From IMG/VR virus record IMGVR_UViG_3300033806_000075: DNA of 64,000 nucleotides. One strand, written 5' to 3'. This document shows positions 11,252-57,319 of this stretch, piece by piece; within the stretch, counting starts at the first letter, position 1, and every line of letters begins with the position of its first letter. The position numbers were made by a program, and so were the translations under genes. The DNA is from an uncultured virus (IMG/VR IMGVR_UViG_3300033806_000075) (Duplodnaviria; Heunggongvirae; Uroviricota; Caudoviricetes). Below the pieces are notes generated by a model that was not told the DNA's origin, ran no database searches, and saw nothing but the letters and a program-made list of their open reading frames with translations.

Positions 11252-11910
11252 CCGACATCGACATCGACGCGATGGAGCAGCGGCATATCGCCCGCCTCGA
11301 GCCTTGGGTAAAGCGCGGTGTCGTTCTCGTCTCCGGAAAGCTCGCTGATGCTCGGGCTCATGCCGAGAAGGCCGTGACCGACACGCTTCGACAAACCCCC
11401 GACGGCCGGGCTAGCGTGGCGCGGATCCGTCAGAACCCGTCCTTCCAGGCAGCACTCACCCGGCTCGATGAACTGCATACAGCGCTGGCCGGCTCGTCCG
11501 TCACGTCGATCTCGGGGCTAGTGCACGATGTGGCCGAGCATGCGTACGTCGATTCGCGCGATCTTTGGTGGGAGCAAATCGATCCGGACTATCGGGCGCC
11601 GTCGAAGGAGCCGACAAACGAGCAAAAAGCCAACGCTCGTGGGCTGCTCTGGTACGGTCTACCGGTGCGACAAGGCTTCAAGACTCAGTTCCAGGCTGCC
11701 CACAACAACCTGTTGATTGCCCTGAGTGCCGCCGGCTCAATCCAGGCGACCAATCGCGATGGCTTCACCGCCCTGCGCACCTGGGAAGAGAAGACCAAGG
11801 CGTCGATCCTGTCCCGACTCGGTGCCGCCCTAGTCGATGCCAACGTGCGAGCCGACCGGGAGGCGATGAAGCACACGATTCACCCAAAGTGGCATGCGCT
11901 GACTGACTGA
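11248..11910 (+). CDS. Helical protein, possibly the N-terminal half of a split MuF/head morphogenesis protein
   Basis: Translationally coupled (TGATG) to the MuF-motif gene. Confidence 0.45.
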   Translation: MTDIDIDAMEQRHIARLEPWVKRGVVLVSGKLADARAHAEKAVTDTLRQTPDGRASVARIRQNPSFQAALTRLDELHTALAGSSVTSISGLVHDVAEHAYVDSRDLWWEQIDPDYRAPSKEPTNEQKANARGLLWYGLPVRQGFKTQFQAAHNNLLIALSAAGSIQATNRDGFTALRTWEEKTKASILSRLGAALVDANVRADREAMKHTIHPKWHALTD

Positions 11911-13385
11911 TGGCCACGATTATTTGGCCAGGCACTCCGGGTGAGAGCTTCACCAACGACACGGGCAAGATCCTCTACCAGTGGATCTGCACGTGGCACA
12001 ACACCTGCGGAGCCTGCGCGCAATATTATCTCGCCATTGCTGAGTGGTGGTCGCCCCTTCACCATAACTGCCAGTGTTACTCAGTCCCAATATATCCTAA
12101 TGCGATTAGCCGTCAATACGAGAACTGGCAGGATGTCGTCTCCGGCCTACCGGAAGACCAACAGAAAGAGCTGGTCGGCGCCTCGAATTGGAAGCTGATC
12201 CAGGAAGGCGTTGTCGACTGGAGTGATGTGGTCACGAGCAGCCGGGTGAGGACGCTTGAGGAGGTGGTCTCCCGCGAACAGCTCGCAATCGAAGATATGA
12301 TCAAAGCCGGGGTCACGCCGAGGATTGCCGAACGCGCCTGGGCCAATGTGAACACGCCCGAGCACCAGTTGAGTGCGCAGCGACGGGCCGAAATACTCAA
12401 AAAGATCCAGGAACTTGGCGTTGGGCCGAAGACGCTCGCTGAGCACTTCGGCCAGCAGATGGCCTCCAAGGTCGGCATCGCGACCGGGCCAAGCGGACCG
12501 CAAACGATCCAGCGAGGCCAAGGGACACAACACTGGACCAAGCGAGTCTTGAGTGCGATCGCCGGCAAAATCAAGGCCGGCGTGCAATCGGTCGTGAGTC
12601 TCTTCAAGAGCAAGATGTCGAAGGCAAAGGCACCTGCGACCGCAACAGAGGCGCCTGCACCGCAACCGCTTACCAAGGTAAAGCCTGCTCCCGGCGAGAG
12701 AGCCGCACCGAAGCCGAAACCCATCGTCGTCAAGCCCTTGCCGAAGCAGGTCGCAGCGACGACCCCATCGTCTGCACCTTACACCGCATTTACGTCCGAA
12801 GCCGCGGTCGAGGCTTGGGGTGCACTGCATTACGGACCCGACTGGAAGGCAGCGCTGACACCGGCCCAGCTCACCGCGATTGAGCAATACACGGGTGGCG
12901 CGGCCATCAGACTGAACGATGCCTTGCGGAGCGGACCGAAGCCTACCGGCTTCTTGAAGACGATCGAAAAGAACCTTGACGCTCTGCTCGCGAGCAACCC
13001 AACGCCTGAGAATCTGACCGTTTACCGCGGCGTCAATCTCGATCGCATTCTCGCGAAGATAGGACTCTCCGGCCTGTCGGACCTGAAACCGGGGATGGAC
13101 TTGATCGACAAGGGCTACACCTCGACCAGCCCGTCCATCGATCGAGCGTGGGCTGGACCTAACCATCCCGACAACACACTGATCGAAATTCAAGTTCCGA
13201 GCGGCACACCGGGCGCCTACGTCGCCTCGGTTTCGACGGTCCTAAACGAGCATGAGTTCCTGCTTGGGCGACAAGTGGATACCTTCCGCATCGTCGAAGT
13301 CATACCATCGACTAACAAGCCGACGGTTCCGGATAAGATCGTGGTTGAGGCTCTCCAATCCGCCCAGCTCAAGGCGAGTAAGTAG
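11910..13385 (+). CDS. MuF-like head protein with C-terminal ADP-ribosyltransferase toxin domain
   Basis: N-terminal YQW...TCGAC...PLHHNCQC (MuF C..C/HxNCxC), Pro/Lys/Ala linker, then VYRG, YTSTS and EHEFLL (R-S-ExE, VIP2/Alt-like ART). Confidence 0.85.
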   Translation: MATIIWPGTPGESFTNDTGKILYQWICTWHNTCGACAQYYLAIAEWWSPLHHNCQCYSVPIYPNAISRQYENWQDVVSGLPEDQQKELVGASNWKLIQEGVVDWSDVVTSSRVRTLEEVVSREQLAIEDMIKAGVTPRIAERAWANVNTPEHQLSAQRRAEILKKIQELGVGPKTLAEHFGQQMASKVGIATGPSGPQTIQRGQGTQHWTKRVLSAIAGKIKAGVQSVVSLFKSKMSKAKAPATATEAPAPQPLTKVKPAPGERAAPKPKPIVVKPLPKQVAATTPSSAPYTAFTSEAAVEAWGALHYGPDWKAALTPAQLTAIEQYTGGAAIRLNDALRSGPKPTGFLKTIEKNLDALLASNPTPENLTVYRGVNLDRILAKIGLSGLSDLKPGMDLIDKGYTSTSPSIDRAWAGPNHPDNTLIEIQVPSGTPGAYVASVSTVLNEHEFLLGRQVDTFRIVEVIPSTNKPTVPDKIVVEALQSAQLKASK

Positions 13386-37827: not shown

Positions 37828-38165
37828 CCGCGGCAAGCGTACTGTAGCCACCTCGCGTCTTGCACCACGCGATTGAGCAGGGCCCGCCCGGACTCCCCAC
37901 CGGCGGGCCCTGCTTGCAAGACAAGTCCAGCGGGGTTTCGATTCCTGGCCTCGCTGGCACGGCCCGGCATGTTAGGCGTGAGTGATGCCGGTTGCCCCTA
38001 GTTAACCGCGTTCGCCCGGGGCGGAGCTAACTCCGGTCTTTCGCACCCCGGGGGGGAGACGGTCTCCTTTGCTCGTTGCCGGGCATTGGCTGCAAGACAA
38101 CATTCGTTCAACCCTCGCAATCACTAAAGCCGATGACTCAAGCACGGTCACGGCGCAGATAGTCC

Positions 38166-38202
38166 AAAAGACCCGCAGGACATCCTCACCTGCGGGTCTT
38201 TT
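38166..38202. terminator. Bidirectional intrinsic terminator
   Basis: Perfect 14-bp inverted repeat AAAAGACCCGCAGG-N9-CCTGCGGGTCTTTT at the convergence point, abutting the last leftward stop. Confidence 0.85.
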
Positions 38203-46808: not shown

Positions 46809-47042
46809 ATGACAGCCGCTACCTTGACTCGCAACCAGACGTACGACTGGACTCGCGACCCCCTCTACGCTGGCCTGGCCGACGAGCCGCAGCCCGCCAG
46901 GCCAGCCCGCCGGCGCCGCTTCGAGCCCAGCCAAGCTGACCTGGCTTGGCTGGCGCAGCAGCCGTCCTTGGCCGCGGGGCGGCCCTACCAGCCGACCAGT
47001 CGCCTCGCTCGGATGTGGGGTCGCCCTGGCTGGCGACGGTGA
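46809..47042 (+). CDS. Early gene A, copy 1
   Basis: Near-identical to 48144-48365. Confidence 0.75.
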   Translation: MTAATLTRNQTYDWTRDPLYAGLADEPQPARPARRRRFEPSQADLAWLAQQPSLAAGRPYQPTSRLARMWGRPGWRR

Positions 47043-47133
47043 CGTGAAATGCAAGGGGGCGCCCGGGCAGTGCCACTACCCGGACGCCCCGATTGATCTC
47101 CCCCGAGCGATTCACAACGAAGGAGCCATACCC

Positions 47134-47385
47134 ATGCTAGCCGAAGTCGTGACCAGTGAATACCTCATGCGGCGTGCACTTCGCGAGGCCAGGTTTCCGG
47201 AGCACGCCATCAACGCGGCGATGCTCAAGCTTTTCCCAGAGCCAGGCGAGGATGCCTGTGAACTGATATCTCCCGCTCAATGTCGATTCCGCCGTCAACA
47301 ACGCCAAGCACAATCAACGGAGCGCCGTAATAATCGCCGTGCTGCTTCATTCTCGCCGGAAGATGGACTGACTTCCCAATCTTGA
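47134..47385 (+). pseudogene. Early gene B, truncated/chimeric copy
   Basis: Matches the 48463 ORF up to EDACEL, then runs into antisense GIY-YIG sequence. Confidence 0.7.
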
Positions 47386-47422
47386 TGGGGCCGTCTTCGC
47401 CAATTCGCGCGAAGTACACCAT
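47225..47422 (-). pseudogene. Truncated GIY-YIG (T5orf172-like) nuclease
   Basis: MVYFARIGEDGPIKIGKS..LPARMKQ; similarity ends at the duplication breakpoint near 47263. Confidence 0.7.
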
Positions 47423-47619
47423 CAGAGCTTCCCTCCCTTTCGCTGCTGATCGATGTACTCTTGTACCACCTTTCGGACCAGGATAGCCATCGTCGTTTCC
47501 TGCTTCGCGGCGAGGATCCGCAAGTCCCGGTGGTACTCGGGCGGGATCTCCAATCGCACGAGCTTGAGGATGGCTTGGCTTACAGGCACGTCTTTCTTCT
47601 CCGGTTTCTTGCGAGCCAT
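47422..47619 (-). CDS. Ribbon-helix-helix repressor (Arc/CopG-like; switch copy 2)
   Basis: KLVRLEIPPEYHRDLRILAAKQETTMAILVRKVVQEYI. Confidence 0.8.
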   Translation of the reverse strand: MARKKPEKKDVPVSQAILKLVRLEIPPEYHRDLRILAAKQETTMAILVRKVVQEYIDQQRKGGKL

Positions 47620-47688: not shown

Positions 47689-47717
47689 AGTATACACGGG
47701 TACGTATACGCCGTCAA
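47689..47717 (-). promoter_or_regulatory. Leftward sigma70-type promoter with GTATAC operator sites
   Basis: TTGACG-N17-TATACT on the minus strand; CGTATACG at 47703-47710. Confidence 0.8.
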
Positions 47718-47740
47718 TCGAAATAATTTTGGCTACCTAC

Positions 47741-47769
47741 TTGACAGCGTATACGCGGTAGCCTATGAT
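47741..47769 (+). promoter_or_regulatory. Rightward sigma70-type promoter P2 with operator
   Basis: TTGACA-N17-TATGAT; palindrome GCGTATACGC at 47747-47756. Confidence 0.85.
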
Positions 47770-47814: not shown

Positions 47815-48090
47815 ATGACGACGACTTACTACAGCGGACTTTGGATCGACACCCCGGAGGGCACAGCCGAGTTCGACCGGATCACCGATGCCCTCTGCGA
47901 CCTGGATCGCAAGATCGAGGAGACGAAAGACGACTTGGAGAAACAGTTTGGTGGCGGGGCGCCAAAGGCGAACGACAACAGTGGCTACGCCCGGGCCTAC
48001 CGGGATCGCGAGCGGCAGATCGAGATCCTCAAGCGGGACCGGACCCGGATGGAAGGCTACCTCGACGAGATCAGCAAGCGGGTAGCCTGA
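47815..48090 (+). CDS. Small coiled-coil protein
   Basis: Same AAGGAGCCCTGAGATGACGAC start context as 46491. Confidence 0.7.
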   Translation: MTTTYYSGLWIDTPEGTAEFDRITDALCDLDRKIEETKDDLEKQFGGGAPKANDNSGYARAYRDRERQIEILKRDRTRMEGYLDEISKRVA

Positions 48091-48143
48091 ACAAGACCAG
48101 GGGCCAGGGACGGCCCCATAGCCCCCTAACAAGGAGCCCTGAG

Positions 48144-48365
48144 ATGACGACCGCGATCCTTACCTACCGCTGGGAGCAGGACCCCCTTTACGCTGGCCTT
48201 ACCGACGAGCCGCAGCCTGCCAGGCCAGCCCGGCAGCGACGCTTCGAGCCCAGCCAAGCCGATCTGGCCTGGCTAGCGCAGCAGCCGACGCTGGCTGCCC
48301 CGAGGCCCTACAAGCCAACCAGCCGCCTCGCTCGCATGTGGGGTCGCCCTGGCTGGCGACGCTGA
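48144..48365 (+). CDS. Early gene A, copy 2
   Basis: AAGGAG RBS; paralogue of 46809-47042. Confidence 0.75.
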   Translation: MTTAILTYRWEQDPLYAGLTDEPQPARPARQRRFEPSQADLAWLAQQPTLAAPRPYKPTSRLARMWGRPGWRR

Positions 48366-48462
48366 CGTGAAATGCAAGGGGGCGTCCGGTGTGCCACCGG
48401 ACGCCCCGATAACCCCGACGACGAGTACCGACCAGGGAAACCCACCGACAGGAGCCAAGATC

Positions 48463-48879
48463 ATGTTAGCCGAAGATGCGCTGAGCAGTGAATACCTCAT
48501 GCGGAGAGCCTTGAGAGAGGCCAAGTTCCCGGAGCACGCGATCAACGCAGCGATGCTGAAGCTTTTCCCGGAGCCAGACGAGGACGCCTGCGAACTCGTC
48601 GAGCTGCTCGACCCCGAGGCTGACGAGCCCAAGCGATGGATGGGCTGGTGCGATCAGGATCGATGGTCGCTGGGCCCTGATCCCAACGACGCTGACCACT
48701 TCCAGCCATTGCCTGAGGACCTGGCGGCGCTCGACGGGATCTGCGAGGAGATCGAACGGCGGATTCAGTATCTCCAGGCCGTCGAGCGAGCCGATGCCGA
48801 GGAGCGGGAGCAGATCAGGCGCCGGATGCTCCCCGATGAGTGCTTCGAGCCGCGCATTCTGGCGGGAGCTGTGGACTGA
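48463..48879 (+). CDS. Early gene B (acidic hypothetical protein)
   Basis: AGGAG RBS; full-length version of the 47134 ORF. Confidence 0.7.
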   Translation: MLAEDALSSEYLMRRALREAKFPEHAINAAMLKLFPEPDEDACELVELLDPEADEPKRWMGWCDQDRWSLGPDPNDADHFQPLPEDLAALDGICEEIERRIQYLQAVERADAEEREQIRRRMLPDECFEPRILAGAVD

Positions 48880-48982
48880 ATCATCTCAGGGCCACGGAGG
48901 GCCCGCCCTCCAGTGCTTTGTCGCACTGCCGACGAGGCCCGGTAGGCCGAAAGGGATCGAGACGGACATCAGGAGGTGAGAG

Positions 48983-50041
48983 ATGGCACACGAGCTGAAC
49001 GTGACGCATGGCAAGGTCAGCATGTTTTTCTACGGCGAGAAGCCATGGCATGGCCTGGGACAGGAGGCTCCAGAGCCGGTGAGGACCTGGGAAGAGATGT
49101 GCGATCTAGCCGGGCTTGGCTATGAGATCGAGCTGCAACCGCAGTACCTCGCCGACGGTCGCTGCACAGGGGCCTTTGCCACGGTTCGCAAGGATACAGG
49201 CCAGATTCTCGGGACCAGGCTATCGAGCGGCTACAAGCCGATCCAGAACATCGAGTCGTTCAACTTCCTGAACTCGGTAGTTGCCGAGAGCGGGATCGAG
49301 TTTCACACCGCCGGGGCACTGGGAGCCGGCGAGCGGGTCTGGCTCATGGCGCGGATCCCCGGGAACATCCGCCTGGGCGAGGGCACGGACCCCGATGAGG
49401 TCGAGAAGAACTTGCTCCTCTACAACACCCATAATGGCAGCAAGGCCATGTGCTGCTTCTGGACGCCGGTCCGAGTGGTCTGTGCCAACACGGTCCGTGC
49501 AGCCCTCTTAGGCCGAGGCGGCGAAGGGATCGTCATCCGCCATACCGGGGAGATTGACAGCAAGATCCAGGAGGCCCAGCGGCTGCTCGGCCTGGGCGTG
49601 CGTTACTACGAGGTGATCGAGCCGCTATTGCATCGCATGGCAGAGACCAAGCTCACCATTGCTCAGGCAAGGGCCTACTTTACATCGCTCTATCCAGACC
49701 CGGACAAGGACGGCGAAAAGAGCCGGCGAGGGGAGACGCTCCAGGCGGCACGTGGTCTGATGGAGCAGCTCTTTGATGGGCGCGGCATCGGACTCGACTC
49801 ACCTGCCACCCGGCATACGGTATGGGCCGCCTACAACGCAGTGACTGAGTACACCGATCATTTTACCGCCGTGTACGGCAAGGCTCCCAAGCCACCGGTT
49901 CGTTCTGACATTGGCCAGGCTGCTCGGCTCGAACGGATCTGGTTCGGCGACCTCTGCCAGGAGAAACAGGCGGCGTTCGAGGGGGCCTGCGAGCTGATTG
50001 GCGCTGACATGCCGGGAGTTGGCAAGATCGAGCTGAATTGA
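48983..50041 (+). CDS. DUF932 / TIGR03299-like phage-plasmid protein
   Basis: AGGAGG RBS; MAHEL, PWHGLG, Y.PIQN.E.F.F, TAGAL..GERVW, TPVRVVCANT, T.WAAYNAVTEY.DH. Confidence 0.9.
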   Translation: MAHELNVTHGKVSMFFYGEKPWHGLGQEAPEPVRTWEEMCDLAGLGYEIELQPQYLADGRCTGAFATVRKDTGQILGTRLSSGYKPIQNIESFNFLNSVVAESGIEFHTAGALGAGERVWLMARIPGNIRLGEGTDPDEVEKNLLLYNTHNGSKAMCCFWTPVRVVCANTVRAALLGRGGEGIVIRHTGEIDSKIQEAQRLLGLGVRYYEVIEPLLHRMAETKLTIAQARAYFTSLYPDPDKDGEKSRRGETLQAARGLMEQLFDGRGIGLDSPATRHTVWAAYNAVTEYTDHFTAVYGKAPKPPVRSDIGQAARLERIWFGDLCQEKQAAFEGACELIGADMPGVGKIELN

Positions 50042-50130
50042 CCATCCTGATCGGGCGCCTCGGCACCAAGGTACCAAGGTGCTTCCTAACCAGGGGCCAT
50101 AGGAGGCCCCGTAACTCGAAGGAGCATCTC

Positions 50131-50451
50131 ATGAGCATTGATTTTTCGTCCCTGATTCGCGCCGCAATCAGGCGGCGCGACGAAGCAGAAGCCGAGCTTC
50201 AGGCCCTGCTGCGTGCCCAGCAGGCGCACGAGGCCGAGCTGCTCGCGCGGACCGAGGCTAGCGAGCGGGCGTGGGCCGGACTGCGACAGCATGAACTGGC
50301 GCTCGTCGGGGCCAGCCCTACAGCATCCGCACCTGCGGCCGATGATCACTGGGCGGCGCGGACGAATGGGCATACTTCACTGCCGCTAGAGGGTCCGGTG
50401 CCAGTCGAACAGTCGGACCGGCGCGTGAAACCGGTCCGCAAAACGCAGTGA
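50131..50451 (+). CDS. Hypothetical coiled-coil protein
   Basis: AAGGAG RBS. Confidence 0.6.
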   Translation: MSIDFSSLIRAAIRRRDEAEAELQALLRAQQAHEAELLARTEASERAWAGLRQHELALVGASPTASAPAADDHWAARTNGHTSLPLEGPVPVEQSDRRVKPVRKTQ

Positions 50452-50482
50452 TTCCATGACCAGGGTCTGAGGAGACCCCATG

Positions 50483-50601
50483 CCCGCGCTCGCCTGAAAC
50501 AACGGCCGGCGCGGGGATCAGCCCCTCATTGTGGGGGGCTGGAAGGCGGGGAGTCCAGGAGCCGTAATCTCCTGGGCTCCCCTGAACACCCGAGTAAGGA
50601 G
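50483..50601 (+). promoter_or_regulatory. Three-hairpin structured leader, copy A
   Basis: 12/10/14-bp stems that covary with copy B. Confidence 0.7.
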
Positions 50602-50610
50602 TCTACCCGG

Positions 50611-50973
50611 ATGTCTATCATCCAGCGTACTTCGTCCGTACCGCGCCGCCAGAGAGTCGCACAATTTGACCTCAAACTCTGCGACTTGGAAGAGCGGGTA
50701 CCGCTCAGTACCGTAGTTAGCCCTCTGGTGGCAGCGCCGATTGCTGCGCCGCCATCGGTAGTCAGTCCTGATCCCCTTCCAACTCTTCCTAACAACGTAT
50801 TCGCTCACCAGGCGTTTCCGGATCTGCCGGATAATGTGTTCGCGCCAGATCCCGATGACCCGTTCGATCCCAATTGGAATGCGCCGTGGATGGAAACCCC
50901 TGAGCAGACGCAGCTTCCACCGATCTACCTGCCACCCCCTCTCGGACCGACAATCCCGAACGACACCCCCTGA
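50611..50973 (+). CDS. Small LExRxLS (Planc_extracel/LEPR-XLL-like) protein 1
   Basis: AAGGAG RBS; RRQR...LKLCDLEERVPLS, then a Pro/Asp-rich tail. Confidence 0.7.
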   Translation: MSIIQRTSSVPRRQRVAQFDLKLCDLEERVPLSTVVSPLVAAPIAAPPSVVSPDPLPTLPNNVFAHQAFPDLPDNVFAPDPDDPFDPNWNAPWMETPEQTQLPPIYLPPPLGPTIPNDTP

Positions 50974-50992
50974 TATGTCTTCTTGCTGCTTG

Positions 50993-51111
50993 TCCGCGAC
51001 AGCATGAAATGATGGCTGTCGCGGGAATCGCGATCCCACGGTGGGATCGCGGCAAGGCGGGGCTGACCGGGATCGTGACTCCCTGTCAGCCCCTGACACC
51101 CGAGTGAGGAG
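50993..51111 (+). promoter_or_regulatory. Three-hairpin structured leader, copy B
   Basis: Same geometry as copy A, with different stem sequence. Confidence 0.7.
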
Positions 51112-51120
51112 TTTACGCGG

Positions 51121-51507
51121 ATGCTAACCTTCCAGCGTACTAGGTCCGTACCCCGATACCAGAGGAGACGATTCCCTGATCTAACGCTTTGCGCCCTGGA
51201 GCAGCGGCTATCGCTCAGTGCGGCGACCGCCCAGCCAGCCGCAGTTATTCCACCAGTACCAACCTTAGTTCAGGTGCCGGTGGGGACCGGCCATTGTATC
51301 TGGCCGCTCTATAACACCGACCGTGCAAACTGGCCCGCTGGTGACGGCCACAATCTGCCGGGCTTTGAAACAGACCCGGGTGATCTTCCACCCTCGAATG
51401 AGCAGGGGCTGATCATGGGCGATCCGATGGACCCGGCGAACCCGGGCCCAACGCAGCCGCCGACAATGCCGAGTCCCATGGAGCCTAATGCAATGCTCCT
51501 TGGCTAA
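51121..51507 (+). CDS. Small LExRxLS protein 2
   Basis: GAGGAG RBS; QRRR...LTLCALEQRLSLS, then a Pro-rich tail. Confidence 0.7.
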   Translation: MLTFQRTRSVPRYQRRRFPDLTLCALEQRLSLSAATAQPAAVIPPVPTLVQVPVGTGHCIWPLYNTDRANWPAGDGHNLPGFETDPGDLPPSNEQGLIMGDPMDPANPGPTQPPTMPSPMEPNAMLLG

Positions 51508-51896
51508 GCCGTAAGACACCGGCCGGGCGGTCCGGTCGGGACCCGGCCCGGGCTCTTGCCATCTCACCCGGGCCGGGAAAGACAAGAGCCCCGAGCGTGC
51601 GGTCAACACGCTCGTGGATCTGGAAGGGCACATCCCCAACCGAAGAGGATGCAATGGCTACTGTACCTGAATCCGCCACCATCGTAAAAGAGCACGCAAT
51701 ATCCAGGCGAGTCGCCAGACTCCGCCCGCTCAAGCAGTTCTTTGGCGAGTACGGCGTCCCGCTCGCCGTGCTCGATCTAATCCTGCCGCCGGTTCCATGC
51801 CGACGTACGAGACTGCGCAGTCGCAGGCTTGCCCGGGGTCAGAGCGATCTGCCGAATCGCAGTTTTCGCTAGACCGCTGTCTAACGGAGGTGAATC

Positions 51897-52112
51897 ATGA
51901 ACAATGGAGTTTTTAAGCCGTCTCAGAGCCTACCCAATTACGCCCATGACGTAGGCGCCGCAGCTGGCCGCGACACGAACGATCCGCATGTGCTGATAGA
52001 TATCTTCCATCGCGCTGGCATCAAACCTGGCACTCCGTCCTGGAGCGATGCCGCCAGGGCAGCCCGCGAGGCGTGGGCATCGAAGCCCAAAGGGGAGAAT
52101 GGCCATGCCTGA
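51897..52112 (+). CDS. Hypothetical protein
   Basis: GGAGG RBS. Confidence 0.6.
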   Translation: MNNGVFKPSQSLPNYAHDVGAAAGRDTNDPHVLIDIFHRAGIKPGTPSWSDAARAAREAWASKPKGENGHA

Positions 52113-52437
52113 TCCACTGCGACCCGCGACTGAGGCCGAGGAGCTGAGCTACCGCATTCGCAAGGCCAACCTCGCCTTGGCAACGTTCATCAATCCAGAT
52201 GATGCCGTCGGAGATTGCCAATTCACCTGTGCCGAATGCGGCCTTCAATGGCTGCTTGACGATCTCAGCAATCAGTTCGAGACACGGCTAATCTGCACGG
52301 ACTGCTCACGCGAGAAGTGCTACGGACTGCATCAGGATCTTCGATCGGTGCTTATCGCGTGGGAAGGCCAACAGGGGGAGGGCGATCGGCTGGCCGATCT
52401 GCTCGCCTACGCCAAATCCCTTTCGCCTCCGCAGTAA
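52105..52437 (+). CDS. Hypothetical Zn-finger protein
   Basis: CAECG...CTDC. Confidence 0.55.
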   Translation: MPDPLRPATEAEELSYRIRKANLALATFINPDDAVGDCQFTCAECGLQWLLDDLSNQFETRLICTDCSREKCYGLHQDLRSVLIAWEGQQGEGDRLADLLAYAKSLSPPQ

Positions 52438-52778
52438 CCCGCACAACCCGCAGGGTAGGGGAGGGGCGGCAGCTCCTGCCGGGCGGCAATCGACACTACC
52501 GCCGGAGATTGTGCGAATGGCCGGTTTTACCGTCAATTGGAGCTGGTCCATGAGTTTGCTTTGGAGTCCAAGCCAGGCTGTAGACGTCCATCCGGTAATA
52601 CCGACCGACGCCGGCTGGCATCTCAAGCACGATGTGCGCGAGATCCTGGAGAGCGGCGACCGCGAGTTGATCGCTCTAGCCGAGAGCGCTCTCTGGGATC
52701 TGCTGCTCGAGCGACGGATGCAGCGAAAGGGCCGGCCCGAACCAGAATTGGCTTGAGATAGCCTAGAAAGAGGAGACC

Positions 52779-53006
52779 ATGAGCGACCAAGACGTGAAGC
52801 TTCGGGCTGTGCTACGAGCGGCATTCCGCGCGACCCATCGCTACCTGTTTGATGGTTTCGCCGACAGCGCCAAAGCTGAAGCCAGAATGACCGCGCTTGC
52901 GATTGCGGTCGAGGATGCGATCCACACCCTCTCCGATGCCGAACGGCAGGATCTGCTCGACGTGCTTGGAGAAGAAGTTCTCCAAATGGAGAGGAGGCCG
53001 ACCTGA
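52779..53006 (+). CDS. Hypothetical protein
   Basis: AGGAG RBS. Confidence 0.6.
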   Translation: MSDQDVKLRAVLRAAFRATHRYLFDGFADSAKAEARMTALAIAVEDAIHTLSDAERQDLLDVLGEEVLQMERRPT

Positions 53007-53020
53007 GCCTTATTGTACTT

Positions 53021-53070
53021 AAGTATCATTGCGCCGAGCGCAATGATACTTTCGAGCCCCAAAGTATCAT
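53021..53070. promoter_or_regulatory. Triple AAGTATCAT inverted-repeat site
   Basis: Perfect 14-bp IR at 53021-53051, overlapping a 10-bp IR at 53043-53070. Confidence 0.6.
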
Positions 53071-53595: not shown

Positions 53596-53813
53596 TCCGC
53601 GTTGGAGACAAGGTCAAACTGCTGCACGGCGGTATCCCAGGGTCTGGCTCGCTCAATACGGAATTCCTCGACGCGGAGGGCTACACTGGCGAGTGTGTCC
53701 CCGTCATAGCCGTCGAAGGCAAGTACGCCATAGTGCAACTCCCGAGCGGCTACAAACTGGAAATCACTGAGCGAGATGTTCTCAAGACTGACAATGATCC
53801 ACTGCAACCATGA
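53592..53813 (+). CDS. Small SH3/KOW-like protein
   Basis: IRVGDKVKL...VIAVEGKYAIVQ. Confidence 0.55.
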   Translation: MIRVGDKVKLLHGGIPGSGSLNTEFLDAEGYTGECVPVIAVEGKYAIVQLPSGYKLEITERDVLKTDNDPLQP

Positions 53814-53970
53814 TCCCTGCAGCGACTGTCCCGGGCATCTCATTACCCTGACGCATCTGCAACGTCGCGGTGGCGTGTATCGTGTGTGGCGATGCGACCT
53901 CTGCGGCCGAACCAATGAGCCCCGAGTACTTCGCGAAGAGGCTCGGGCCAAACAGACAGGAGCAATCGAC

Positions 53971-54594
53971 ATGTCAGCAGTCGACGTATATCCAATCTTT
54001 ATCGACTTGGCCAGGCCGTTTCGAGCTGAGGAGGTCAAGAGCAGATCGCAAGCCGGACGGACCTTCAAATACATCACAGCTCGGACCGTGATGAACCGCC
54101 TCGATGATGGGGTCGGTCCTGGCAACTGGTGGGATGACTACGTCCCGCTGGAACATTCGGTCATCTGCCGGCTCACGATCCAGCTCCCTGACGGTCGTAC
54201 CGTCACCAAGTGTGACGCCGGGGGCTACGCTGGTCTTCCAGATGAAGGCGACGATGACAAAAGTGCGTTCTCGGACGCCTTCAAGCGAGCCGCGGTCAAG
54301 TTTGGCATCGGCCGCTACCTATACAACGACGGCGTGCCGAGCTGGGCAGAGCCAGAAGCAAAGGCCAATCCCAATCCTGCCGCGCCGGTGATCGAGGCCG
54401 AGACGCCCGGGCAAACGCTGGCCAAGTGGGCAGCGCGGAATCCCGATGCCCTAGATTTTCTAACCCGCGTTGGCAGTGACCTGGGCTTCCCGAAGGCTTT
54501 GAATACCTGGAACCAGGAACAGTGCGAGAAGGCCAGCAATGAGTGGCATAAAGTGAAGCGAGCGCGGCGAGCCCAGGAGGCCAGTGCAAACTGA
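53971..54594 (+). CDS. Rad52/Sak-family single-strand annealing protein
   Basis: YITARTVMNRLD..VGP.NW, VTKCDAG, KSAFSDAFKRAAVKFGIGRYLY. AGGAG RBS before 53971; the frame is also open upstream through a Zn-ribbon segment. Confidence 0.9.
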   Translation: MSAVDVYPIFIDLARPFRAEEVKSRSQAGRTFKYITARTVMNRLDDGVGPGNWWDDYVPLEHSVICRLTIQLPDGRTVTKCDAGGYAGLPDEGDDDKSAFSDAFKRAAVKFGIGRYLYNDGVPSWAEPEAKANPNPAAPVIEAETPGQTLAKWAARNPDALDFLTRVGSDLGFPKALNTWNQEQCEKASNEWHKVKRARRAQEASAN

Positions 54595-54606
54595 GAGGGA
54601 GCCAAC

Positions 54607-54873
54607 ATGCCAACGATCAGGCACATCACATTCCTGGAGTACCCTACGGCTGAAATTGCAACGTACACGGGTGAAACACCAAGCCTACGCTGGCTAGATT
54701 TGGGCCGTCCCTTTCGCGTACCTCGCGACGTCTGGGACCGCGCCAAGCCGGTGAAGACATGGAAGATGTCGACCGGGGAATCGCCGGTGCACGGACAGGT
54801 GCGAATCCTTGCTGACCAGGATGCTGACTGGTGTCTTGCGCCTGGCCGGCCCTGCCGATTGGTCTGGGGCTGA
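54607..54873 (+). CDS. Hypothetical protein
   Basis: GGGAG RBS. Confidence 0.55.
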   Translation: MPTIRHITFLEYPTAEIATYTGETPSLRWLDLGRPFRVPRDVWDRAKPVKTWKMSTGESPVHGQVRILADQDADWCLAPGRPCRLVWG

Positions 54874-55021
54874 TTTTACCGGTCCCCGCTTGCTTTGATA
54901 CTTGCTCCGTGATAAGGTCCGAAGAGTTTGCCTTAATCCTGGCCTGCAAGGGTCAGGAAGACTTCGCCGGCCGCGAGACAGTCGCCATACCGCCTCGCGA
55001 CGGATAGACCCAGGTTTACAG

Positions 55022-57319
55022 ATGACACATGCTTGTCTTGCATCAGGCGCTGTTGCGCCTCGATCAGTACCGTTGCGCGTCCACTCTCCGTGGGAGCAAG
55101 ACGTCCAAGCCTTTGGATTGATCCCGGCTTCCATCTGGGCAGAGCCAAAAATCTCCTTTCGCGCGAAGATCGTGCTCGGGGGCCTTGCAATTGCCGCGGC
55201 TGGCTCCCGCGATGGAGTTCGTGCATCCAAGCAAGATCTGGTAGGGCTGACCGGCTGTGATCTTCGAACCGTCAGCCGGGGATTGGCTGACCTGGCCAAA
55301 GCCAAAATCATCGAAATCGTGGAGATCGGGAGGCAGTTCCGCTTCCTCTTTTCGCTCAAAGGAGGCACACGTCAGGCGCACACCGTGCACACAGCGTGCG
55401 CGCAGCGTGCGCCTGGCATGCGCGCATTGGGAGTTCCCCCCCAGACCCCCCTATATGGAAGTAGAGAAAGAGAGAAAGACGAAGACGACGAGACGCCTGC
55501 GGCTAAAACCGTCGTCGTCGTGTCTTCCGAGATCACTAACAAGATAAGAGCCATTTGGCCGGACGAGTGCCTCGTCGAACGACGCGCCCAAGAGCTTGCC
55601 AGCAAGGGAGACGCCGAGGCTCTCCTGGCGATCGAATATGCGCAGCTCAAGAAAGCCAAGGGGCTGGTGTATGCAATCAAGACACGCGATCGCTGGTGGC
55701 GAGACGGCTATGACCTTGCCGATATCCAGGCGGAAGTCCAGGCGGTTCGACCAAAAGCCACGTCCGTCAGTGCTACGGTTCTCCCGACTCCGACGTCACT
55801 GGAAGAGCGTCAAAACGAGGCCGCGAACTTATTGGAGAGCCTCGAGAAGGGCGGCTGGTCAATTCGGCTCATGGCGAATGGTGAGTGTCAGTGGGACAAA
55901 CTGCGCGATAATGCGACATGGGATGAGGACATTGCCGGAAAGTTGAAACGACTGTACCGCAGCGAAGTGCTAGAGATACTGAGAGAAAGGACTAGCCGAC
56001 GGGGTGAGATAGCCAACGGGAATGGTAGCAGACTTGGAGACTCAGCGCATGAAAAAACCGCTGGGGATGCCAGTCGCCACCTTACACCCCCAGCGGCCCC
56101 AGGTTATTTCCGTTCGCAGCCATCGGTCCGTCAGCCTGAGCATAAGTTAAACCCATGTTCAGGTCAAGGAGCGACAGTACAAACGGCAGATAACCAGCGC
56201 GCCCGGCAGGATTCGAACCTGCAACCCTCGGATTCGAAGTCCGCGGGTTCCGAGCCTCCCGCCGAGCCTGGCAGTAGTCTGCCACCAGTACAAGACACAC
56301 CTTCACGTCGGCAAAATACCGCGGAAAACGCAAACGATCCCCTACAGCCCCGTGAAGATGCCGAGAAAAACCCGCGGATATCCAATCCGCAGGTTCTCCC
56401 CGTAGCAGACTTTGGTGCACCTTCGCACCAAATCCCGCAATCCGAGGAGAGCAATTCCGATGCGTCCCGCGTCCTGGAAGAAGCTGCGCGCCGAGATCCT
56501 GAGCCTGTACGAGCCACCACAGAGAGCTCCGGCGACTTACCGGGAGATGCGACAGATTTTCGACGAATTCCCGGCACAAAAGGTCCGCGACCTGAGCCCA
56601 CCAAAGATCGCCGAGTGGATCAAGACGCATCCGGATCGCAGCCCGGCCAGGACAGCAAGCCTACTGCGATGCTTGGCCGTGATTGCCCGGTACGCGGTCC
56701 AGGCGAGGTACCTGGCGCGCGACCCATTCGAGTTCCGGGCCCCATCGAAGTGGGTACGGATGGACTCCCGACCGAGTACCCGCAGGATACTCCACCGGTC
56801 ACCGGAGCAGATCGGCCGACTACTGGACCTCCTGGATCGGGAGGCAGCGGAAGGAGGCTGGAAGGAGGGCCGGCTCCAGGCCATGGGGTACACATTTGCC
56901 TACACGGGGCTGCGGGCGAAGGAGGGATTAACGCTCGAGCGCAGCGACATCGATCTGGTAGCCCGTACGCTTACGATCCAGCCGAAGGAAGACTGGCGGC
57001 CCAAGACCCTCAGGTCGGCCCGCACTCTCCCGTTAGCCCTGCCGCTCCTCGATGTCCTGCGCCTCTGGATGCCCCGTACCGGATGCCAGTGGGTTTTCCC
57101 GGGTGTCCGGCTCTTGGGACCGTGGACGGGCGGGCCGCCGGGCGGAAAGGCGGTTCACGCCATGGAGGCGGCGGGGGAGCGGGCGGGCATCGGCCCGATA
57201 CCCTTCCTGGGGTTTCGCAAAACGTTCGGGACGGTGGCAGGGACTTGGGGTTTGGTTCCACAGGACGTGCAAACCATCTTTGGTCACACGCGCGTGGAGA
57301 CCCAGATGCACTACCGTGA
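55022..57319 (+). CDS. Putative replication initiator (N-terminal wHTH); frame reads through attP and overlaps the integrase
   Basis: KISFRAKIVL...SKQDLVGLTGCDLRTVSRGLADL.KAKII. Protein-like to ~56000; the true start and the reality of the C-terminal part are uncertain. Confidence 0.55.
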   Translation: MTHACLASGAVAPRSVPLRVHSPWEQDVQAFGLIPASIWAEPKISFRAKIVLGGLAIAAAGSRDGVRASKQDLVGLTGCDLRTVSRGLADLAKAKIIEIVEIGRQFRFLFSLKGGTRQAHTVHTACAQRAPGMRALGVPPQTPLYGSREREKDEDDETPAAKTVVVVSSEITNKIRAIWPDECLVERRAQELASKGDAEALLAIEYAQLKKAKGLVYAIKTRDRWWRDGYDLADIQAEVQAVRPKATSVSATVLPTPTSLEERQNEAANLLESLEKGGWSIRLMANGECQWDKLRDNATWDEDIAGKLKRLYRSEVLEILRERTSRRGEIANGNGSRLGDSAHEKTAGDASRHLTPPAAPGYFRSQPSVRQPEHKLNPCSGQGATVQTADNQRARQDSNLQPSDSKSAGSEPPAEPGSSLPPVQDTPSRRQNTAENANDPLQPREDAEKNPRISNPQVLPVADFGAPSHQIPQSEESNSDASRVLEEAARRDPEPVRATTESSGDLPGDATDFRRIPGTKGPRPEPTKDRRVDQDASGSQPGQDSKPTAMLGRDCPVRGPGEVPGARPIRVPGPIEVGTDGLPTEYPQDTPPVTGADRPTTGPPGSGGSGRRLEGGPAPGHGVHICLHGAAGEGGINARAQRHRSGSPYAYDPAEGRLAAQDPQVGPHSPVSPAAPRCPAPLDAPYRMPVGFPGCPALGTVDGRAAGRKGGSRHGGGGGAGGHRPDTLPGVSQNVRDGGRDLGFGSTGRANHLWSHARGDPDALP
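56052..56096 (-). terminator. Terminator downstream of the tRNA fragment (minus strand)
   Basis: CCGCTGGGG/CCCCAGCGG stem followed by T6 on the minus strand. Confidence 0.6.
56198..56249 (-). other. attP core: 3' half of tRNA-Arg(TCG)
   Basis: Minus strand reads CGGA-CTTCGAA-TCCG AGGGTT GCAGG-TTCGAAT-CCTGC CGGGCGC G; no 5' half; ~200 bp from the integrase. Confidence 0.85.

Follow-up and report, generated by a model that had tools for sequence, protein, structure and literature searches.

Introduction

What stands, twice over and in the same form, in front of two small neighbouring genes of an uncultured tailed phage? The DNA that raises this question is a 64-kb stretch of the IMG/VR record IMGVR_UViG_3300033806_000075 (the window, by which the whole of that stretch is meant), and the element is a leader made up of three hairpins, P1, P2 and P3, and a tail that carries the ribosome-binding site and runs up to the start codon. 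A first-pass annotation had drawn attention to it as a candidate cis-regulatory RNA with compensatory changes in its stems, and had offered a range of functions from riboswitch to recombination signal. Our analyses support the structural part of that proposal: the structure of P1-P3 is real and under selection, the element very probably acts as RNA, and we class it as a new motif within a known kind, the structured intercistronic or leader RNA elements of phages. As to its function, the reading that we prefer, at somewhat less than even confidence, is that of a fixed RNA module between cistrons, one that would serve stability, insulation and the start of translation, each of these roles being one that we infer.

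Two copies of one leader

Copy 1 of the leader occupies positions 50483-50610, with the ATG of mini-gene 1 at 50611, and copy 2 occupies positions 50993-51120, with the ATG of mini-gene 2 at 51121, so that both begin 128 nt ahead of a start codon, exactly as had been described. The two lengths agree at 128 nt because copy 1 is one nucleotide short in the linker between P2 and P3, and copy 2 is one short in the tail. The first copy lies between a 106-aa open reading frame (ORF) and mini-gene 1, the second between mini-genes 1 and 2 (Table 1). RNA folding returned the same arrangement for both, that is, P1, P2 and P3, followed by a small fourth hairpin, P4, with the Shine-Dalgarno (SD) sequence in its loop, 9 nt before the ATG. 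The minimum free energies were -74.9 kcal/mol for copy 1 and -72.4 kcal/mol for copy 2 (z-scores of -4.9 and -5.4), with 0 of 200 shuffled sequences as stable, and after correction for G+C content the leader was the most structured 120-nt stretch of the window (residual -4.4 standard deviations). Perfect hairpins of at least 9 bp are found at only about 11 places across the 64 kb.

The dimensions given to the hairpins by the first-pass annotation held up to different degrees. P2 is indeed a 10-bp stem with a 3-nt loop in both copies. P1 has the 12 stem positions ascribed to it, of which only 11 are paired, the exception being a C.C in copy 1 and an A.G in copy 2; and P3 has its 14 positions and 7-nt loop in both, with the full 14 bp present only in copy 1, as copy 2 carries a C.U mismatch. 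The shared tail containing the ribosome-binding site was confirmed as well: ACACCCGAGTRAGGAG has exactly 2 occurrences in the 64 kb, the 3 other matches having 3 mismatches each, and none of 100 shuffles attained 5 matches. P3 passes into this tail through TGA(A)CACCC, without a U-tract. Each copy is also entered by a short upstream ORF, and both of these ORFs, which have the same frame with respect to P1, terminate in the P1 loop at its conserved UGA, a common stop point that may be due to chance.

Compensatory change in the stems

A covariance model (R1) was built from the two copies, realignment placing the single gap in the P2/P3 linker. In the structure-fitted alignment of 41 pairs there were 12 double-sided changes, 5 one-sided changes with pairing kept, and 2 unpaired cells; 97.6% of the cells were paired, versus 34-51% when the partner was slid by 1-3 columns, and 0 of 500 shuffles matched the observed values, controls that are generous in that there are only two sequences and the structure was derived from the same two. 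These pair counts bear out the claim that compensatory change has kept the three stems, and, judged from the alignment, twelve double changes among the 35 pairs of P1-P3 cannot be chance.

The pattern of identity between the copies is consistent with pairing, rather than sequence, having been retained in the stems. Stem columns of P1-P3 are 57% identical (40/70) and loops and linkers 65% (20/31), the 31-nt tail with the SD sequence is 87% identical (27/31), the first 12 codons of the mini-genes show 75% identity at all three codon positions, and codons 13-37 fall to about 42-69%, depending on codon position, the first 37 codons together coming to about 62%. The stems, at 57% against 62% for third codon positions, are therefore as diverged as silent sites, and pairing has nonetheless been retained. 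The loops and linkers, which had been called conserved, are so only marginally as a class (65% versus 57% for the stems), while two of them, the AAGGC linker and the UGAAA of the P1 loop, are fully identical; the bases of P1 and P3 are likewise identical in both copies, and it is the mid-stem positions that vary. Searched over the 64-kb window, the covariance model gave strong matches only at the two copies (151 and 144 bits) and 1 weak match adjacent to them. Like REP- or BIME-like intergenic repeats, the leaders are rich in hairpins and stand between a stop codon and the ribosome-binding site of the next gene. REP- or MITE-like repeats would be expected in many dispersed copies, and the copies seen here are adjacent ones within a window that covers all but about 10 kb of a contig of 74,283 nt.

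Strand and static folding

All 5 wobble cells are G.U on the + strand, which is the strand of the genes, and 0 would be wobble on the - strand, in agreement with the strand to which the element had been assigned. For copy 1, P1-P3 folded as RNA to -70.0 kcal/mol on the + strand and -62.3 kcal/mol on the - strand, a preference of 7.7 kcal/mol. As DNA both strands fold well (z -5.5 to -9.7). The genes are read from the + strand, and the element leads directly into the ribosome-binding site; we consider it very probable that it acts as RNA.

Within a 280-nt context the stem pair probabilities were about 1, and when P1 was masked or forced open P2 and P3 were unaltered and nothing refolded; the hairpins are very stable, mutually independent and static. 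No U-tract follows any hairpin, no terminator-like site occurs in 50452-50610 or 50974-51120, and no sigma-70-like hexamer pair was found on either strand between 47769 and 52508, the last being a weak test, as the promoter type of the host may differ. With stems this stable, and with neither a U-tract nor a promoter, the leader is unlikely to be a riboswitch or an attenuator, and equally unlikely to be a terminator or a promoter cassette. An intrinsic terminator in particular was ruled out, there being no G+C-rich hairpin with a directly adjoining U-tract in the leaders, and leader-peptide attenuation was rejected in that the short upstream ORFs are present, yet opening P1 yields no alternative pairing.

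Relatives and further copies

Rfam release 15 produced zero matches at gathering thresholds across the whole window, and with the limit relaxed to E <= 10 for positions 48000-53000 the sole match overlapping a leader was R1162 antisense RNA, at 19.8 bits versus a gathering threshold of 55, so that the statement that this is no known family stands. In IMG/VR the exact tail motif retrieved 7 loci, none with the hairpins, and in metagenome contigs the extended tail motif retrieved 9 loci, none with the three-hairpin layout (one, L016, has some hairpins in another geometry). A pattern for the frame of P3 found 82 stretches in IMG/VR (L019-L100), and a P1 pattern found 2 loci there. Run over 100 of the 102 loci so collected, with L008 and L009 excluded as unrelated genome matches, the covariance model gave 12 matches at E <= 1. 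The best of these, L067 (26.5 bits), was judged to be chance, its score deriving from the preselected pattern, without a real P1 or P2 and with an unrelated gene downstream.

Other routes to relatives led to similar results. A blastn search of 50452-51660 against GenBank phages gave no match; the mini-gene 2 family yielded no locus in IMG/VR and 2 weak, unrelated loci in the GTDB genome contigs, which were searched via the protein family only; and the DUF932 neighbour and the major capsid protein, used as queries against IMG/VR, retrieved none. Against GenBank phages the DUF932 protein had, among the matches listed, only about 33% identity or less, mostly to actinobacterial phages. The further covarying homologues to which the first-pass annotation had looked were thus not retrieved from the DNA collections searched, and the one diverged relative that was found, from a peat metagenome, has retained the tail but can no longer be aligned over P1-P3. 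The leader family is therefore either very narrow or has its relatives confined to assemblies outside those searched.

Parts of the stretch are present in 5 peat metagenome runs, with no RNA run among those listed, and when contigs from 4 of these 5 runs were compared with the window some pieces were identical. Run X4 contained the diverged relative, a 257-nt contig corresponding to copy 2 and mini-gene 2, the changes of which match protein P0002. In it, positions 51090-51111 of the tail are without a difference, one base is deleted at 51112, and the next ~125 nt hold 20 differences, whereas the first 107 letters, where P1-P3 would be expected, could not be aligned at 80%. Because the tail is unchanged and the P1-P3 stretch is unalignable at that level, the tail appears from these sequences to be conserved, and the hairpins to change more rapidly than the codons of the gene.

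A possible third copy follows mini-gene 2. The operon has 7 foldable intergenic gaps, and for three of them, consecutive and 159, 147 and 146 nt long, the folding energy lies between -0.49 and -0.54 kcal/mol per nt (z -3.0 to -6.3), versus -0.34 to -0.40 kcal/mol per nt (z -1.4 to -2.2) for the remaining four, of 53-103 nt. The third intergenic region, 51508-51653, is followed by an SD sequence and the ATG of an unrelated 72-aa ORF, and aligns end to end with the covariance model at 14.5 bits (E 0.026 over the whole window). We give about an even chance to its being a decayed third copy of the leader. Another contig of the X4 relative covers this region; it shows one double change from G-C to A-U, and its changes at 51607 and 51519 keep pairing only as G.U on the + strand.

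The mini-genes and their proteins

The products of the two mini-genes can be aligned over residues 1-37 only, at 51% identity, and are unrelated beyond that point. That of mini-gene 1 has one homologue in public data, 93% identical. The mini-gene 2 family comprises 10 sequences including the window's own, 9 of which were aligned; 4 came from a word-indexed search and 7 representatives from an exhaustive profile search, two of them among the four. Identity in this family goes down to about 31-49%, with an N-terminus that consists of a basic stretch and then L-x-x-C-x-L-E-x-R-x-S-x-S, and a nearly invariant core, PVGTG...DGHxLPGFExDPG; at least mini-gene 2 is a real conserved gene.

Neither mini-protein had a family match in NCBIfam, Pfam or PHROGs. 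The Atlas model of the mini-gene 2 product is disordered (mean pLDDT 0.24), and the Atlas feature lead for it, a 'LEPR-XLL domain', scored 0.81, below the level that counts. An N-terminal motif of this kind is common in secreted proteins of the PVC group, with which the weak lead would agree, and the literature searched for the 'LEPR-XLL domain' held 2 incidental mentions only. The N-terminal motif shared by the mini-genes (50611-50721 and 51121-51231; P0002-P0010) resembles what NCBI names LEPR-XLL, and may have been taken over from the host group as a signal for export or sorting.

Mini-gene 1 is also the target of a CRISPR spacer. Positions 50639-50673 (35 nt) are matched exactly by two short contigs of peat run X3, in which the same ~30-nt repeat, with a G+C-rich internal palindrome, stands on both sides, and it is because of these identical flanking repeats that the match is taken to be a spacer. 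Some organism in the X3 peat has immunity against this phage, aimed at the conserved N-terminal part of mini-gene 1. The idea that the leader might mimic the CRISPR repeat as an RNA anti-CRISPR was discarded on inspection alone, P2 of copy 1 being loosely like the stem of the X3 repeat and P2 of copy 2 not.

A proposed fixed module between cistrons

The mechanism that we propose is that of a cis-acting, + strand RNA module within a polycistronic early transcript of an uncultured tailed phage, and it has two parts. The first is P1-P3, in which pairing is selected and the mid-stem sequence is free to change, and the second the conserved 31-nt translation-start segment, in which P4 displays the SD sequence. 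As a static block, and not a switch, the hairpins would fill the ~150 nt of untranslated gap between cistrons. They would guard the cistrons on either side against exonucleases, or against 5'-end-dependent decay once the transcript has been processed, and would hold upstream ribosomes, the folding of upstream RNA and possibly Rho away from the start region, with the outcome that the small proline-rich proteins downstream would be produced at a set level. The leader and the first 37 codons were duplicated in tandem as a unit, and they are now joined to two unrelated C-terminal payloads. These suggested roles go a step beyond the observed structure, covariation, strand preference, static nature and operon context.

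Should stability or translation of the downstream genes in fact be governed by the hairpins, the leader would be a clean natural example of an insulator or gene-boundary RNA in a phage, with stems that may mutate as long as pairing persists. That a shared leader and N-terminal signal go with unrelated payloads also suggests a way in which phages could assemble and rearrange small accessory proteins. The value of the motif is limited by its being confined, so far, to one uncultured peat phage lineage.

A number of points weigh against this reading. There are just two sure copies, in the same genome and from one duplication, and because of that shared origin the 128-nt spacing and the geometry are inherited and therefore do not count as independent evidence. 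Template switching at the level of DNA can keep palindromes near-perfect and so mimic compensatory change, and IMG/VR, the metagenome contigs, the GTDB contigs and the GenBank phages gave no homologue for a proper covariation test. The excess of 5 wobbles over 0 amounts to only about p = 0.03, P1-P3 of copy 2 is without a strand preference (-64.7 versus -65.3 kcal/mol), and overall the - strand folds about equally well. In the third region, the change of the X4 relative at 51597 looks disruptive unless it is compensated by an unlisted change. Finally, a generic stabiliser leaves the retention of three hairpins of fixed size unexplained.

Comparison with known elements

The leader resembles the processing hairpins of phage early operons, such as the RNase III sites of T7, in being a repeated intergenic structure of which the structure is kept while the sequence drifts. 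The early RNase III sites of T7 are single, longer (about 20 bp or more) and irregular hairpins, unlike the three short, perfect hairpins of 10-14 bp seen here, which are probably too short for RNase III.

A likeness at the gene start is found in the SAS of Cluster K mycobacteriophages, conserved short motifs that contain the ribosome-binding site and lie just before the starts of non-structural genes (PMC3203893). As outlined there, the SAS is a 13-bp start-associated motif with 11-19 copies per genome, about half of which are preceded by an inverted repeat, and the ESAS is a single 17-bp inverted repeat with a consensus sequence; a function of the SAS in translation initiation is suspected (PMC3203893). 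The leader shares with them a conserved motif with the ribosome-binding site at phage gene starts and inverted repeats upstream. By that outline, it differs from the SAS in having 2 copies in 64 kb versus 11-19 per genome, and from the ESAS in having three covarying hairpins with free mid-stems versus one repeat of conserved sequence, and there is no sequence similarity between the leader and the SAS or ESAS as given there.

The PeSLs of T4-type phages are stem-loop regulatory motifs ahead of small variable ORFs, proposed to be points of modular exchange, and they join a terminator and an early promoter (PMC4122927). The leader is like them in being a conserved stem-loop motif before small variable ORFs and unlike them in having no U-tract and no promoter-like site, with the reservation that the promoter test was weak, as the host promoter type may differ. 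A further parallel is offered by HK022 put, Bacillus EAR and Tn916 canT, which are cis-acting, orientation-specific RNAs with several hairpins, carried by mobile elements; their target is RNA polymerase, which they modify ahead of terminators (PMC11658703). The mark of such an element is read-through of terminators further on that depends on its presence in cis and on its orientation. By analogy the leader might be grouped with them as a cis-acting multi-hairpin RNA of a mobile element, but on that description it is a poor fit, lying deep in an operon, in tandem, and fused to a ribosome-binding site. The leader lacks the defining features of SAS/ESAS and of PeSLs, and by its position and structure it appears to differ from the RNA antiterminators and the intercistronic processing hairpins as well.

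A bolder proposal, which we regard as unlikely, is that with this leader a new family of phage RNAs has its first member. It would be a compact platform of three helices around a conserved core (helix bases, AAGGC linker, UGAAA loop and ribosome-binding tail), to which some factor of the phage or the host, or else RNA polymerase or the ribosome, would bind, and it would be both a regulatory element and a cassette junction for swappable genes of small exported proteins.

Alternative explanations

The foremost rival to the intercistronic module is a specific binding platform, which could be a translational operator, where a protein on the tail, helix bases and loops would time the synthesis of the mini-proteins, or a factor-independent antiterminator that modifies RNA polymerase in the manner of HK022 put, EAR and canT. 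It is an explanation we think doubtful while granting what speaks for it. The bases of P1 and P3, the AAGGC linker, the UGAAA of the P1 loop and the whole tail are identical while mid-stems vary, and helix lengths and loop sizes are constant; for an antiterminator, the RNA-only antiterminators of mobile elements are multi-hairpin RNAs (PMC11658703), and terminator-like sites are found further down the operon, at 51844-51860 and 52994-53011. Yet conservation in the unpaired parts of P1-P3 is not above background (65% versus 57-62%), and the family scans of the window's proteins identified no RNA-binding protein nearby. Moreover, put sites lie just after promoters, unlike these tandem copies 2.7-3.2 kb from the promoter.

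A second rival sees an evolutionary cassette junction, in which the leader, start region and N-terminal signal would form a portable site for homologous swaps of payloads, like a PeSL, with the hairpins marking cassette borders. The first-pass annotation's idea of a cassette of motif plus gene is plausible, and it is compatible with the intercistronic module, just as an RNA function is compatible with a junction; as a separate explanation we find it quite unlikely. The proteins share residues 1-37 only, the similarity sets in precisely where P1 begins, there are three successive units of structured leader plus small ORF, another pair of genes in the early region has been duplicated with its hairpin kept (46809-47385 versus 48144-48879), and PeSLs offer a precedent for conserved motifs acting as exchange points (PMC4122927). 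What tells against it is that recombination requires identity and the stems are the least conserved part, and that there is no promoter, unlike in the PeSLs.

It has also to be asked whether the palindromes are a feature of the DNA, serving as single-stranded or cruciform signals for priming, pausing or recombination, or being kept perfect by intrastrand template switching, with no role as RNA. Both strands do fold well as DNA, near-perfect stems are typical of DNA palindromes, correction of one arm by the other would produce apparent double changes, and some single-strand initiation signals consist of three hairpins. This explanation is nevertheless improbable, for all 5 compatible cells that are not Watson-Crick are G.T on the + strand and would be A.C mismatches on the other strand, a conserved ribosome-binding site and a start codon adjoin the element directly on that same + strand, the likely replication genes are elsewhere (53776-57319, of which only the Rad52/Erf-like gene has a family match), and nothing points to a single-stranded DNA stage.

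The antisense or antitoxin RNA that had been among the early suggestions is disfavoured. Type I toxins are small, hydrophobic and under about 60 aa, and the proteins here, of 120 and 128 aa with homologues of 95-172 aa, are proline-rich and not small hydrophobic toxins, while the wobbles, all 5 on the + strand, favour the sense strand. There remains only a very slight chance of a ligand-sensing riboswitch, as the annotation had also suggested, or of an attenuator coupled to a leader peptide, to which the 5' leader position, the want of a known family and the upstream ORFs ending at the conserved P1-loop UGA in both copies would be suited, since there is no multi-helix junction, the near-perfect stems are static and independent with no alternative pairing when P1 is masked, the SD sequence is not sequestered by P1-P3, and apart from the R1162 overlap there is no Rfam match for the leader even at E <= 10.

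Genomic setting and other features of the window

The window, at 60% G+C, belongs to a tailed phage, free or integrated as a prophage. Among its products are a terminase, a portal protein and an SU10-type major capsid protein, with a long + strand structural block and several nucleases, as well as a DUF5131 protein and the neighbours listed in Table 1. From 47815 on, the genes of the + strand have the look of a single early rightward operon. Its likely start, 2.7 kb upstream of the leaders, is the + strand promoter of the divergent pair in the table, and the leader region would be transcribed as part of that one operon. A canonical terminator, with A-tract, hairpin and T-tract, is present in the window at 38166-38202.

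Table 1. Coordinates of the leader parts, the genes they precede and the surrounding features of the window
Feature	Position	Strand	Description
Copy 1 P1	50483..50515	+	12 stem positions, among them a C.C mismatch and a U.G; UGAAA conserved in the apical loop
Copy 1 P2	50519..50541	+	10 bp including one U.G; 3-nt loop
Copy 1 P3	50548..50582	+	14 bp including one U.G; 7-nt loop
Copy 1 tail	50583..50610	+	Conserved run ACACCCGAGTAAGGAG at 50586-50601; P4 loop displays the SD sequence
Copy 2 P1	50993..51025	+	11 bp including a terminal U.G; A.G at position 12
Copy 2 P2	51029..51051	+	Perfect 10-bp stem; 3-nt loop
Copy 2 P3	51059..51093	+	14 positions with one C.U mismatch; 7-nt loop
Copy 2 tail	51094..51120	+	Conserved run at 51096-51111; P4 hairpin; SD sequence
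Mini-gene 1	50611..50973	+	120 aa; basic N-terminus, LxLCxLExRxxLS motif, proline-rich remainder
Mini-gene 2	51121..51507	+	128 aa; same N-terminal motif as mini-gene 1; conserved core
Third intergenic region	51508..51653	+	146 nt; three hairpins, the last P3-like with 14 positions and a 7-nt loop
5-codon upstream ORF	50480..50497	+	Own SD sequence GAGGAG at 50469-50474; runs through the 5' arm of P1
10-codon upstream ORF	50975..51007	+	Begins 1 nt past the stop of mini-gene 1
106-aa ORF preceding copy 1	50131-50451		
DUF932 protein	48983-50041		
Divergent pair of strong sigma-70-like promoters	47689-47769		Consensus match only
Best sigma-70-like promoter	47741..47769	+	11/12; consensus match only
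Divergent partner promoter	47717-47689	-	Consensus match only
Ribbon-helix-helix protein	47422-47619	-	
Rad52/Erf-like annealing protein	53776-54594		

The second duplicated module of the early region, 46809-47385 versus 48144-48879, consists of paralogous small genes (77 and 73 aa) followed by genes beginning MLAE at 47134 and 48463, with a related strong hairpin separating the genes in each copy (47056-47090 and 48379-48407). The wobble pairs of the first of these hairpins suit the - strand, and one copy of the module is on the far side of the ribbon-helix-helix gene.

A highly structured, G+C-rich non-coding stretch is found on the - strand at 37850-38090, downstream of the bidirectional terminator (38166-38202); part of this stretch looks T-arm-like by eye, and neither ARAGORN nor Rfam made a call there. 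The covariance model of the leader matched 37850-37957 on the - strand at 17.5 bits, and this match was rejected as a different structured region without an ATG at the aligned start. ARAGORN did call a tRNA-Arg (anticodon tcg) at 56199-56268 on the - strand, within an 805-aa ORF (54902-57319), and no Rfam tRNA at gathering score was found there; either the tRNA call is false or the 805-aa ORF, which is without a family match, is not real.

In the virion-structural block, the ORF at 11910-13385 has an ADP-ribosyltransferase exoenzyme domain in its C-terminal third (Pfam E 4.8e-24), and its product may be a head-associated or injected enzyme. Lastly, two overlapping, A+T-rich perfect palindromes with stems of 14 bp and 10 bp are found at 53021-53070, in the gap before the Rad52/Erf operon, together with promoter-like hexamers on both strands, and this site is likely an operator or promoter region.

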